Program-made: the position numbers and the translations under genes
Notes under the pieces: model-generated
Database searches by the model: none
Seen by the model: only the letters and a program-made list of their open reading frames with translations
Told to the model about the DNA's origin: nothing
Shown: in pieces, positions 56,390 to 59,992 of the stretch
How positions within the stretch are numbered: the stretch's first letter is position 1
Layout of the letters: the number at the start of each line of letters is the position of its first letter
DNA from: Candidatus Hydrogenedentota bacterium
Lineage (GTDB): Bacteria; Hydrogenedentota; Hydrogenedentia; Hydrogenedentales; SLHB01
DNA: 64,000 nt
Reading direction: 5' to 3'
Assembly: GCA_013359265.1 (NCBI GenBank)
Contig: JABWCD010000012.1
Coordinates: 8,458-72,457, forward strand

Positions 56390-57730
56390 ATGTCCACGCG
56401 CGAACCGCTCCAAACGCCCCCGTCGGATGCCGATACGAAACGCATTTTGCGCATCGTCTTCTTCATCGTCTTTCTCGATATGGCGGGGTTTTCCGTCATC
56501 TTTCCGCTATACCCGAGCATGCTCGATTACTACCTCGCGCGCGAAGGATCGTCCGGCGTACTGGGTTCGATTGTTTCCTGGCTGGATCAGTTGCGTCTAT
56601 GGCTCGGCGCGCGCCCCGAGCAGGGTCACGACATCATCTTCGGCGGATTTCTCAGCGCGCTCTACGCGTTGCTGCAGTTCATCTGCGCGCCGATATTAGG
56701 CGGCATTTCCGATCGTGTCGGGCGCCGCCCAATTCTACTGTTCGCAATCGCCGGACTCGCGCTTTCCTACGGCCTGTGGTTCTTCGCCAGCACGTTTCTC
56801 ACGCTGGTCGTCGCCCGGCTGATCGGCGGCCTGATGAGCGGAAACATTTCCGCGGCGTCCGCGGTCATCGCCGACGTCACGACGGACAGGAACCGCTCCC
56901 GCGGAATGGCCGTGCTCGGATTTGGCATTGGCGTGGCGTTCATGTGCGGGCCTGCCATCGGCGGCATTTCGTCAATGCTGGACCTAACGCGGCATTGGCC
57001 CAGCCTGGAGGCATATGGGGTCAATCCGTATTCGGCCGCGGCAGGCGCCTCAATGCTGCTGGCCGTGCTCAACTGGCTCGTGGTTGCATGGGGTCTTCCG
57101 GAGACGCTGCCGCGAAACGGCGCGACGGAGCGCGTCCCGCGCTCCGTCAATCCATTGGCCATGTTTGTGGTTCGTTACCGGGGCGTTACGCGCGCTAACG
57201 TCACGTACTTCATCTTTCTGTTGGCGTTCTCCGGCATGATGGAATTCGCGATCACGTTCCTTGTCAAGGACCGCTTCGATTTTCAACCCGGCCAAATAGC
57301 CGTCATGTTCCTTTTCGTAGGCTTTGTGCTCGCCTTGGCGCAGGGCACTTACGTCCGGAGGCGCAGCGACGTCATCGGACCCAAGCGCATGAGCATTCAC
57401 GGGCTGCTCTGCATTGTGCCCGGTATAGCGATAGTTGGAATGGCGCAATCGATCTGGATGCTCTATCTCGGGCTTGTCCTCACCACCGTCGGCTCGGCCC
57501 AGGTGCGCCCCTGTATGTCTGCCTTAGTCTCGCTGTACACGCCGCCCAACGACCAGGGACGCATACTCGGCGTCTTCCGCTCTCTCGAAGGCCTCACCCG
57601 GGCGATGAGCCCGCTTTTGGCCTGCCTGCTTTACTGGAACCTGGGTGCCCCAAAGGCATACGGGGTTGCGGCATTCGCCGTTACCGCATCTTTGGCGCTC
57701 GCGCTGACCCTTCCTAAGTTTACAAAATAA
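56390..57730 (+). CDS. MFS transporter
   Basis: 446 aa with about 12 TM helices. MFS motif A is GGISDRVGRRPILL. Confidence 0.88.
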   Translation: MSTREPLQTPPSDADTKRILRIVFFIVFLDMAGFSVIFPLYPSMLDYYLAREGSSGVLGSIVSWLDQLRLWLGARPEQGHDIIFGGFLSALYALLQFICAPILGGISDRVGRRPILLFAIAGLALSYGLWFFASTFLTLVVARLIGGLMSGNISAASAVIADVTTDRNRSRGMAVLGFGIGVAFMCGPAIGGISSMLDLTRHWPSLEAYGVNPYSAAAGASMLLAVLNWLVVAWGLPETLPRNGATERVPRSVNPLAMFVVRYRGVTRANVTYFIFLLAFSGMMEFAITFLVKDRFDFQPGQIAVMFLFVGFVLALAQGTYVRRRSDVIGPKRMSIHGLLCIVPGIAIVGMAQSIWMLYLGLVLTTVGSAQVRPCMSALVSLYTPPNDQGRILGVFRSLEGLTRAMSPLLACLLYWNLGAPKAYGVAAFAVTASLALALTLPKFTK

Positions 57731-57852
57731 GAATATTAATCGATTTTAGTGTAATTATTTAATCTGTTCTTGGATTATCGTTACAAACGGTGCCGCTTGT
57801 GGTATACTTACCCGGGGCTATGGGACTGGGCCCACACGGGAGGCTTTTTTTC

Positions 57853-59013
57853 ATGACTGGAACTTTACGCTCGATACTGGTCTGTCTGCTCGTAACCGCC
57901 GTGATGTTTTGCGGGCCGGGTTGCCCACGAACGACCAATAATCCCACCGGCAGTGTTAAGCAAGGCAAGGTAACGGTGCTGATTGGTTCGGCGTCGAAAA
58001 CGTTGAGCCAGGCCCTGCTCGAGGCGGTGGCGCCAAAATCGGTTGTGGCGGCTGAGGAGATTTACTCGCTCACGTTGACCGTTACGGAAATCAGTCTCTC
58101 CAAGGATGACGATGATGATGACCACGGCGATCACGACGGCGACGACGACCATGGCGATGATGATGGCGACGATTTCGATGACGATCATGGGGATGATGGC
58201 GGTGATGAAGTCGACGACGACAAGCATCACGATAGCGACCATGATGGCGGCAATGGTCATGGCGACGATGGCGACGACGATGGTGATGACGACCATGGGG
58301 ATGATGACGGCGATGACGACCATGGGGACGACGATGGTGATGATGACCATGGGGACGACGACGGCGATGACGACCATGGGGACGACGATGGCGACGACGA
58401 CCATGGGGACGACGATGGCGATGACGACGACGAACATGTCGTAGTTTTCCAGGGATCGCAGGAAATCGATCTGGTTTCGCTGGACAACCTTTCGCAGGTG
58501 TTCTCGACTACCGATATACCCGCGGGCGTATATCACCGCATCACGCTGAATATCGAGAACCCGCGCCTGCGGCTCGTTAGCGATCCGGAAACCGAAATCA
58601 CGGACGTCCACCTGACGGCAAATGGGCGGTTGTTTGTCAATACAACGTTTGAAATCCCGGAAGGCGGCAACAGCCTGATAGAACTGATGTTCAATGGCGT
58701 TCACCTGGTCCGGTTGGGGAACGGAGGATACGTGCTCACGCCGCAATTGGATGCGAGCGTCACCGTATCCGCGGCGGACGTGACAGCCAACGGAACCATC
58801 GCGTCGGTGGACGACGCGGCGGATTCGCTGGTCCTGACGCTGGCGGATGGCGACGTCACCGTGCTTTATGGCGGCGCGGCGATCTTCCTCCCCGCGGACA
58901 CGGACACACCGACCGGAACCGAGGCGGACCTTCTGCCGGGCGCGAGCGTCGAAGTCGTCGGGACAATCGATCTCGACGGTGTAATAACGGCTTCGGAAAT
59001 CCACGTGCTATGA
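57853..59013 (+). CDS. DUF4382-like lipoprotein with a His/Asp-rich insertion and a DUF5666-like C-terminal domain
   Basis: ATG 57853, with a FCGPGC lipobox. The DUF4382-type pattern is DLVSLDNLSQVFSTTDIPAGVYHRITLNIENPRL...GNGGYVLTPQL. A 111-aa tract is composed mostly of D, H and G. Confidence 0.75.
   Translation: MTGTLRSILVCLLVTAVMFCGPGCPRTTNNPTGSVKQGKVTVLIGSASKTLSQALLEAVAPKSVVAAEEIYSLTLTVTEISLSKDDDDDDHGDHDGDDDHGDDDGDDFDDDHGDDGGDEVDDDKHHDSDHDGGNGHGDDGDDDGDDDHGDDDGDDDHGDDDGDDDHGDDDGDDDHGDDDGDDDHGDDDGDDDDEHVVVFQGSQEIDLVSLDNLSQVFSTTDIPAGVYHRITLNIENPRLRLVSDPETEITDVHLTANGRLFVNTTFEIPEGGNSLIELMFNGVHLVRLGNGGYVLTPQLDASVTVSAADVTANGTIASVDDAADSLVLTLADGDVTVLYGGAAIFLPADTDTPTGTEADLLPGASVEVVGTIDLDGVITASEIHVL
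58105..58437 (+). repeat. Coding low-complexity tract (Asp/His/Gly) containing about five tandem 27-nt units (HGDDDGDDD)
   Basis: The repeat GACCATGGGGAYGAYGAYGGYGAYGAC recurs from about 58291 to 58428. The whole tract reads DDDDDDHGDHDGDDDHGDDDGDD...DDDDEH. Confidence 0.9.
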
Positions 59014-59082: not shown

Positions 59083-59943
59083 ATGCGTAAAATTCACATG
59101 TTGCTGTCCTGCCTTCTGGCGGTCTCCATCGCCCTGATGGGCGCCGGATGTCCACGGCCGGCGGGCAAGGGCAAGGTAACCGTCCTGTTCGGTTCGGACG
59201 CGAAGTCGTTGTCCGGGGCGCTGCTCTCGGCGGTTGCGCCGAAAGCGGTCGTAGACACGGCGGACATCGAATCGCTTACGGTGACGGTCACCCAGATTTC
59301 GCTGGATTCGGAAGATGAAGACGAAGGCGAAACGGAAGGCGAAGGTGAAGCGAAAGCCGCCGGTGACGTAATCGTGTTCGAGGGGTCGCAAGACCTTGAA
59401 CTCATCTCGTTGGCGGGCCTTTCGGAAGTGTTCTCGAGCGCGGAGATTCCCGCGGGAACGTACACGAAGATTCGCATCGCGATCGAGAACCCGCGGCTTC
59501 GGCTGGCGAGCGATCCGGAGACGGAAATCACGGACATCAAGCTGACGGCGAACGGGCACCTCTTTGTCTCCGAGACGTTTGAGGTGCCTGCCGATCAGAA
59601 CAGCAACATCGAGATCACGTTCGAGGATTTGCACCTCGTGCTGAACGGCAACGGCCGCTATGTGCTCACGCCGCAGTTGCGCGCGGACATTCTGGTTTCG
59701 TCCGCGGACGTAGCGGCGAACGGCACAATTGCTTCGGTCGATCCGGACAACGATTCGATGGTTGTGACGCTCGCGGACGGCGACACCACGGTGCTGTACG
59801 CGGGCGCGGCGATCTTCCTGCCGGCGGACACGGACACGCCAACGGGAACGGAAGCGGACCTGGTTGTCGGCGCAAGCGTCGACATCGTAGGGACGATCGA
59901 TCTCGACGGTGTGATTACGGCGACGGAAATCCATTTGCTATAG
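59083..59943 (+). CDS. DUF4382-like lipoprotein, paralogue lacking the His-rich tract
   Basis: It has a GAGC lipobox and the same domain order as 57853..59013. A short acidic DSEDEDEGETEGEGE segment occupies the same position as the His/Asp tract. The last ~50 aa are nearly identical to the upstream paralogue. Confidence 0.8.
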   Translation: MRKIHMLLSCLLAVSIALMGAGCPRPAGKGKVTVLFGSDAKSLSGALLSAVAPKAVVDTADIESLTVTVTQISLDSEDEDEGETEGEGEAKAAGDVIVFEGSQDLELISLAGLSEVFSSAEIPAGTYTKIRIAIENPRLRLASDPETEITDIKLTANGHLFVSETFEVPADQNSNIEITFEDLHLVLNGNGRYVLTPQLRADILVSSADVAANGTIASVDPDNDSMVVTLADGDTTVLYAGAAIFLPADTDTPTGTEADLVVGASVDIVGTIDLDGVITATEIHLL

Positions 59944-59966: not shown

Positions 59967-59992
59967 GAAGGGCGGCCAATTGGCCGCCCTTC
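59967..59992. terminator. Perfect palindromic hairpin between convergent genes (bidirectional terminator candidate)
   Basis: GAAGGGCGGCC-AATT-GGCCGCCCTTC. It is followed on the plus strand by TTCGTTTC. Confidence 0.55.

Follow-up and report, generated by a model that had tools for sequence, protein, structure and literature searches.

An aspartate-, histidine- and glycine-rich loop with a nonapeptide array in a probable lipoprotein of a Candidatus Hydrogenedentota bacterium

What would a bacterial lipoprotein do with an unbroken run of more than 100 residues made almost entirely of aspartate, glycine and histidine? The question is raised by a gene in a 64,000-nucleotide window of the Candidatus Hydrogenedentota assembly GCA_013359265.1 (contig JABWCD010000012.1, positions 8,458 to 72,457, forward strand), which encodes a 386-residue probable lipoprotein interrupted by an Asp/His/Gly tract. 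A first-pass annotation, made from the letters of the window alone, had taken the tract for a divalent-metal buffer or sink of labile length. We suggest, at about even confidence, that it is a low-affinity, high-capacity cation-binding loop, for which we infer a ligand and a physiological role as a buffer, antenna or sink. Most likely the tract represents a familiar type of feature taken to an extreme and involves no new mechanism.

The tract and its repeat array

The following features define the element.
57853-59013, forward strand: gene for the 386-residue probable lipoprotein (open reading frame with an ATG after a GGGAGG Shine-Dalgarno sequence; 60 homologues)
58105-58437, forward strand: the tract, a predicted disordered loop between β strands at residues 70-84 and 195-206 (AlphaFold2 model)
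58267-58428, forward strand: regular 27-nt array of six units (Tandem Repeats Finder and unit table)

The tract comprises 333 nt, or 111 codons, in frame with the open reading frame at 57853-59013, and its position, frame and length had been given exactly in the first-pass annotation. It contains 67 Asp, 23 Gly, 14 His and 2 Glu residues together with a single Phe, Val, Lys, Ser and Asn (60% Asp, 12% His), which gives a net charge of about -67. The peptide reads DDDDDDHGDHDGDDDHGDDDGDDFDDDHGDDGGDEVDDDKHHDSDHDGGNGHGDDGDDDGDDD(HGDDDGDDD)x5 DEH. Its five HGDDDGDDD units, at 58294-58428, are exact as peptide, as had been noted, and are directly preceded by a DGDDDGDDD unit.

At the DNA level, the array is more restricted than first described. 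Encoding by 27-nt tandem repeats holds for about 58259-58428, where Tandem Repeats Finder places 6.3 copies with 87% matches (score 263), but not for the 5' half of the tract, which shows only degenerate 27- and 36-nt periodicity. Nor are the units "nearly perfect": pairwise comparison of the five HGDDDGDDD units shows 1-5 differences in 27 nt, and exact repeats reach 32 nt at most. Six columns vary among these units, all of them at third codon positions and all synonymous, while only 16% of the possible single-base changes are expected to be silent. The repeated peptide is therefore under purifying selection.

In an AlphaFold2 model built with 26 homologues, the predicted local distance difference test score falls below 50 over approximately residues 90-191, while the flanking β domains are modeled with confidence, indicating that the tract is a genuine loop that is predicted to be intrinsically disordered. 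Searches with the tract alone returned one uninformative homology match, probably through composition filtering, and, in the PDB, chance matches to tau and nothing else. Three open reading frames that overlap the tract (57865-59004, minus; 58106-58444, plus; 58257-58487, minus) were rejected as genes, being by-products of the GAY/GGY/CAY codon run. Such overlapping frames, with translations like MTMMMTTAITT... or SSSPSSSPW..., are at risk of being mis-called as genes.

The host protein and the variable loop of its family

Three further features concern the host protein and its tandem copy.
57853-57924, forward strand: signal-peptide-like N-terminus ending in GPG-Cys24 (lipobox-like; helix at residues 3-19 in the AlphaFold2 model)
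58792-59001, forward strand: C-terminal DUF5666-like small β-barrel, OB-like (Pfam, Foldseek)
59083-59943, forward strand: tandem paralogue of 286 residues (DUF4382, 45.7 bits)

The N-terminus is basic, then hydrophobic, and ends in G-P-G-Cys24-Pro, with G23-C24-P25 invariant among 26 homologues. Lipoboxes were judged by the pattern [LVI][ASTVI][GAS]C, in which the Cys does not vary. A proline at position -2, as in the G-P-G-C of the tract protein, lies outside the usual lipobox set, whereas the paralogue carries a canonical G-A-G-C. Assignment of the tract-bearing protein to the lipoproteins, as in the first-pass annotation, is thus probable, with the invariant triplet in its favor and the atypical proline against it.

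In a six-frame search of the genome, the segment right after the tract (58414-58743) matched DUF4382 (PF14321) with 29.5 bits (cut-off 25). A whole-protein hmmscan misses this domain because the tract splits it; among the homologues, P0001 reaches 33.8 bits and P0013 27.8 bits. Residues 314-383 resemble DUF5666 (PF18914), with 25.7 bits in the tract protein and 23.9 bits in the paralogue, both just under the 27-bit cut-off, which is exceeded in relatives such as P0001 (31.2 bits) and P0042 (70.8 bits, with three copies). Foldseek gave weak best matches of the C-terminal barrel to OB folds (RPA, RMI, CusF, YgiW, CcmE), none with E <1e-3, and nothing for the DUF4382 part; a PDB sequence search with the family profile returned nothing significant, that is, no solved relative by sequence. 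The architecture of the family is a DUF4382 β-sandwich followed by one or more OB-like DUF5666 domains. The same six-frame search found no DUF4382 genes in the 6.1-Mb genome other than the tract gene and its tandem paralogue. Both products are acidic outside the tract as well, with a net charge of -20 for the rest of the tract protein and -33 for the paralogue.

The paralogue shares 71% identity with the tract protein over the C-terminal 191 residues and 56% over the N-terminal 75 residues. At the site of the tract it has a 21-residue acidic loop, DSEDEDEGETEGEGEAKAAGD, with an acidic core of about 15 residues, so that the earlier description of the tract as an insertion where the paralogue is short is correct. 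More widely, the family is small: a search of 1.84 billion proteins gave 329 representative relatives with E-values no higher than 1e-3; the named genome records among them are nearly all Candidatus Hydrogenedentota, and a copy is present in half of 61 related genomes. In a census of 140 members, the loop, which comes after a conserved "..TVTEISL" strand, is always acidic, hypervariable and very rapidly evolving, with lengths of 6-198 residues (median 24) and a pooled composition of 22% Asp, 17% Glu and 16% Gly. Poly-D, (EG)n, (EQ)n and DG-type loops occur elsewhere in the family. The window's loop, delimited in the census as 113 residues with 59% Asp and 14 His, is the longest low-complexity loop and the one with the most His.

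A tree calculated from loop-trimmed sequences groups the tract protein with P0001-P0004 in a long-loop clade (support 100/98) with D-rich loops of 58-113 residues. Its sister is a clade of short-loop proteins, among them the window's paralogue, and the duplication is therefore older than these species. The orthologous long loops share a central "DKH" anchor; the long copy at locus L080, for example (P0216), has a 78-residue loop with 11 His (DDDHGEDDDHGEDDDDHHGDDD...DDKHH...). The repeat period differs by lineage, being 27 nt in the window and 39, 18, 15 and 6 nt in orthologues. Length lability, which had been predicted from the repeats, is thus borne out between species: loop lengths and repeat periods differ in every related lineage, with recurrent independent expansions. 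As acidity is the family-wide constant, the regular spacing of His is a trait of the unit that was amplified in this lineage. The P0001 protein was identical in two independent samples, and a metagenome scan for the window's own species yielded three loci, none near-identical to the window.

Likeness to loops of metal-binding proteins

Two matches in the homologue search were driven by the tract itself, a ZnuA (P0057; PF01297, 3.6e-82) and a ZrgA (P0054; PF10986), both metagenomic. The internal loop of the ZnuA, HGDDDGHGHDDDHGDDDHADDDD... (HGDDDGHGHDDDHGDDDHADDDDHGHDDD...), is built of DDDHG/HGDDD-type units, and the loop of the ZrgA reads DEDHGDDDHGDDDHG... (DEDHGDDDHGDDDHGDADGDEDHGDEDH). Because of these near-identical (HGDDD)n loops, low-affinity, high-capacity cation binding appears to be the best reading of the tract. 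In Vibrio cholerae ZrgA, a disordered His-rich loop adds four to five mostly low-affinity zinc sites in vitro and is dispensable in vivo (PMC9820375); the same paper draws a parallel with the loops of cluster A-I substrate-binding proteins, which, according to literature that it cites, would hold extra low-affinity zinc (PMC9820375).

Like the tract, the ZnuA loop is a disordered internal loop with DDDHG/HGDDD-type units in an exported or lipid-anchored protein. However, the host folds are unrelated, no ABC transporter partner lies near the tract gene, and the tract is longer and richer in Asp than the loop of P0057, with 12% His as against about 30% (estimated by eye). The ZrgA/PA4063 family (PF10986) likewise has a central, unstructured, His/Asp/Glu-rich loop of variable length, but ZrgA has a ferredoxin-like fold and belongs to a zinc-regulated zrgABCDE operon, whereas the tract protein combines DUF4382 with an OB-like domain and has no metal operon. 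In Pfam, the tract protein matched neither PF01297 nor PF10986, and it is a member of neither family. That the tract works like the ZnuA and ZrgA loops is an evenly weighted proposal.

An old tandem duplication gave rise to a short-loop and a long-loop copy, and in the window's lineage the long loop was extended further by in-frame duplication of a 27-nt unit, yielding (HGDDDGDDD)n. Selection has since preserved this peptide, and the DNA of the copies has diverged only silently. On the cation-binding proposal, the resulting chain, with a charge of about -67, could act as a cation exchanger of low affinity and high capacity at the membrane surface: the Asp carboxylates would condense Ca2+, Mg2+ and other hard cations, and the 14 His with neighboring Asp residues might contribute a few micromolar-type sites at which Zn2+, Cu2+, Ni2+ or Co2+ would bind. 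Since the tract is 60% Asp and 12% His, Ca2+ and Mg2+ are at least as likely to be its ligands as Ni, Zn, Cu or Co.

Other known systems resemble the tract to differing degrees. Among DUF4382 plus DUF5666 lipoproteins, whose architecture the tract protein probably shares, an acidic loop is a family trait and the tract lies at the extreme of the range. RTX nonapeptide repeats (GGXGXDXUX) share the nine-residue period, the richness in Gly and Asp and the export, but they form a Ca2+-bound β-roll, whereas the tract has no hydrophobic position and is predicted to be disordered; an RTX identity was rejected on finding no PF00353 match and zero GGxGxDxUx pattern matches. Two DxDxDG matches to EF-hand-like calcium motifs, confined to the non-repeat part, were considered chance. 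Calsequestrin, histidine-rich Ca-binding protein and aspein/asprich are extremely acidic low-complexity proteins, one with interspersed His, that bind many cations weakly. These high-capacity Ca2+ buffers and matrix proteins come from eukaryotes, however, and have neither sequence nor context in common with the tract protein, so that the likeness is one of physical chemistry only. The zinc exoprotein ZepA was also considered and set aside, no link to DUF4382 being given for it (PMC10957091).

The loop position has been occupied by other modules elsewhere. The distant DUF4382-like lipoprotein P0052 carries (DDDHG)n at the equivalent loop (hhalign probability 94.8%), which points to independent recruitment of the motif in another lineage. 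Its gene (L074:223-6385, JAJRTQ010000309.1) is divergent from genes for an extracytoplasmic function sigma factor, a FecR-like anti-sigma factor and a TonB-dependent receptor. In another branch of the family, in 36 relatives (L026 from 900 onward, L020, L025, L063-L066, L070:8001-9869; P0036-P0049, P0107 and others), a plastocyanin-like domain (PF00127) flanked by acidic runs is inserted at the tract-equivalent loop. Aligned to plastocyanin, all but one of these inserts carry Ser in place of the type-1 copper Cys ("PYFS...GM.G") and have lost the second His while keeping the first His and the Met, and thus form a conserved variant cupredoxin; P0107 alone keeps the full His/Cys/His/Met set. Pfam detected no cupredoxin domain in the window's two proteins. 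A broader proposal, which we hold to be rather unlikely, is that the loop after "TVTEISL" serves as a cassette site at which Hydrogenedentota DUF4382/DUF5666 lipoproteins repeatedly install cation or metal modules, be it an Asp/His array or a cupredoxin-derived His/Ser/Met set.

Two further observations were made elsewhere in the window's genome (G000). A trigger-factor-like protein of 514 residues, encoded outside the window (G000:C16:224443-225987, minus strand), has an N-terminal extension, AEHDHDHDHDHDHDHDHGHHHHHGHDHDHDHGEEE, that places a His/Asp tract on a cytoplasmic chaperone and recalls SlyD with its metal-binding tail. Short stretches, at least 15 in number and scattered over many contigs (for example at C19:268234 and C21:4135 and in C30 and C53), translate as DYDYEHEHEHEH... 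in small open reading frames of 53-200 residues; their appearance is that of a hexanucleotide-type DNA repeat of GATTAC/GAGCAC units dispersed through the genome, not of genes.

Transcription unit, gene neighborhood and competing readings

The surroundings of the gene pair include four further features.
56390-57730, forward strand: upstream transporter of the major facilitator superfamily (MFS), 446 residues, Tet(A)-like, DHA1 type (Pfam MFS_1, 1e-45; far below NCBIfam cut-offs)
57780-57808, forward strand: putative sigma-70-like promoter, GTTACA, 17-nt spacer, TATACT, with TG (both hexamers kept upstream of the L038 and L037 orthologues)
57822-57843, forward strand: 5' leader GGGACTGGGCCCACACGGGAGG, conserved, with the Shine-Dalgarno sequence GGGAGG (57838-57843) at its 3' end (alignment)
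59967-59992, forward strand: intrinsic-terminator-like hairpin of 11 pairs, which closes the two-gene unit

With a promoter 5' of the first gene, a terminator 3' of the second and no terminator between them, the tract gene and its paralogue probably form one transcript. The 22-nt leader is present in a single copy in the genome, had no match in Rfam and is kept in the L038 and L037 orthologues. In another lineage it stands before the only, short-loop copy, and there it is read through as "GLGPHGR" in an N-terminal extension of P0017.

The gene pair is surrounded by genes for an AsmA/YhdP-like protein, the Tet(A)-like MFS transporter, a family 2 glycosyltransferase (GT2) and an FAD-dependent oxidoreductase. 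Synteny is conserved within the genus in the order AsmA/YhdP-like, MFS, long copy where present, short copy where present, GT2, FAD oxidoreductase, and the order AsmA, MFS, lipoprotein(s), GT2 is found at L038, L044, L045 and L077-L080. The search for orthologues with and without the long insert, called for in the first pass, found both: L038 and L080 have both copies, L044 and L077-L079 (nine contigs) the short copy alone. A single intermediate copy with a 39-residue poly-Asp loop occupies L045. Outside the genus, the MFS/AsmA synteny is lost and distant relatives adjoin pseudopilin-like genes. At about 16 loci of these more distant relatives, the lipoprotein gene adjoins a conserved four-gene cluster resembling minor pseudopilins, with products of about 150, about 210 (with an N-terminal methylation motif), about 560 and about 180 residues (L071:4619-7900, L070:11013-14480, L047, L055, L058, L059, L061-L064, L066 and L067). 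In the window's genome, this cluster is unlinked and lies on another contig (L073:5609-9128, G000:C39:177722-181022), followed by two more N_methyl genes. Were the loop site a cassette for cation or metal modules, the adjoining cluster might display or secrete the lipoprotein.

A number of observations weigh against cation binding as the function of the tract. The similarity to the ZnuA and ZrgA loops is compositional and not one of homology. The His/Asp metal-binding signature seen in the first pass agrees with those loops in composition, but its His residues are not conserved: His is absent from most of the family loops in the census and ranges from 1.7% (P0003) to 14% across the orthologous loops, and is therefore not required for the function of the loop in this clade. 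The long-loop copy is dispensable, given that the close relatives at L077-L079 and L044 live without it. Moreover, nothing ties the gene to metal homeostasis as a metal buffer or sink. In none of the close relatives does a metal-transport or metal-regulator gene adjoin the pair. No Fur/Zur-type box (AT-rich, 7-1-7-type) was found in the promoter, although the operator consensus of the phylum may differ. The genome has two ZnuA-like loci and two Fur-family genes, none of which has a detectable operator in common with the tract promoter, and no upstream motif links the ZnuA-like loci to this promoter. For any DUF4382 or DUF5666 protein, the literature reports neither binding data nor a function. 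Finally, the cupredoxin inserts lend the metal theme weak support, since 35 of 36 lack the copper-binding Cys.

The -35 and -10 hexamers enclose an 8-2-8 palindrome, ACAAACGG-tg-CCGCTTGT, which was discarded as it is not kept in orthologues, and three upstream motifs run against the whole genome yielded no meaningful matches. The genome's two ZnuA-like proteins (325 and 310 residues) appear to have no His-rich loop. At one of the ZnuA-like loci (L033, G000:C16:330250-333646), which encodes a lipoprotein, an apparent DtxR/MntR-type regulator gene precedes and ABC ATPase and permease genes follow; judging by these neighbors, the locus may be a Mn/Fe/Zn TroA-type system.

The main competing reading, possible if doubtful, is that the tract is instead a ligand-less polyanionic bristle, a disordered and highly charged spacer or an electrostatic shield whose effect would depend on charge and disorder alone. 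Such a bristle could, equally tentatively, hold the domain off the membrane or lipopolysaccharide, counter adhesion and fouling, or present an exposed epitope under diversifying pressure. The His residues would, on the same uncertain footing, be a tolerated one-step neighbor of the Asp codon that became fixed and was then amplified with the repeat. Acidity is indeed the sole constant of the family while length, sequence and repeat type (EG, EQ, poly-D, DG) vary freely, and the spread of His among orthologues (1.7-14%) argues for acidity as the conserved requirement. The lack of a metal context at the locus, the dispensability of the long copy in close relatives and the strong acidity of the rest of the protein and of the paralogue point the same way. 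However, the differences among the five HGDDDGDDD units are all synonymous, which argues that the exact peptide, including its His and Gly, has been kept beyond the needs of charge. His is also enriched, while Tyr, an equally accessible one-step neighbor, is absent from all eight loops compared, as against up to 14 His, although selection against aromatic residues could also explain this difference. Furthermore, a chain with about 67 negative charges binds divalent cations anyway.

We consider it quite improbable that the protein acts at a mineral interface, where poly-Asp/Gly would bind or control calcium carbonate, calcium phosphate or metal-oxide surfaces and thereby block encrustation or anchor the cell. 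Shell-matrix proteins rich in Asp, aspein and asprich among them, work in this manner, and a tract of 60% Asp punctuated by Gly, in a family whose members come from groundwater, sediment and reactor metagenomes, would be in keeping with such a role, but the likeness is one of composition only, no gene context supports it and most family loops are too short.

Capture of organic cations (polyamines, cationic peptides or cationic antibiotic-metal complexes) by a loop working with the upstream MFS transporter is very improbable. The MFS-lipoprotein synteny is kept within the genus and the transporter most resembles efflux pumps of the Tet(A) type, with scores well short of the family cut-offs; on the other hand, the two genes have separate promoters, the synteny gives way to pseudopilin-like neighbors outside the genus, and no precedent was found.

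An artefact, in the sense of a repeat number or whole tract produced by misassembly or of a decaying gene, is improbable in the extreme: repeats in metagenome-assembled genomes are a classic cause of collapse and expansion, but no k-mer of ≥33 nt is repeated within 58001-58540, so that the assembly path is unambiguous at usual k and collapse or expansion unlikely, silent differences distinguish each unit from the others, the frame is intact with both flanks conserved in frame, and loops of the same type, 58-78 residues long, occur in independent assemblies of relatives.

Returning to cation binding, disordered loops rich in His and Asp are already known from exported metal proteins, and an acidic loop is a trait of the DUF4382/DUF5666 family; the novelty lies in the scale (111 residues, 60% Asp), in the regularity of the nonapeptide array and in the host fold. 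Bacterial metal-binding proteins repeatedly carry disordered His/Asp loops as a poorly understood accessory, and this tract is an unusually pure and long example, set in an uncharacterised host fold in a phylum without cultured physiology. Natural controls exist in the short-loop paralogue of the same operon, the orthologues with loops of 58-78 residues and the close relatives that lack the gene. Should the tract bind no metal, it would simply mark the far end of the range over which a hypervariable acidic loop varies. Should the loop site prove to be a cassette for cation or metal modules, the family would constitute an unrecognised class of envelope metal-handling lipoproteins. If the tract does bind metal, it would provide the first functional handle on the DUF4382/DUF5666 family and a compact, natural, high-capacity cation-binding peptide.

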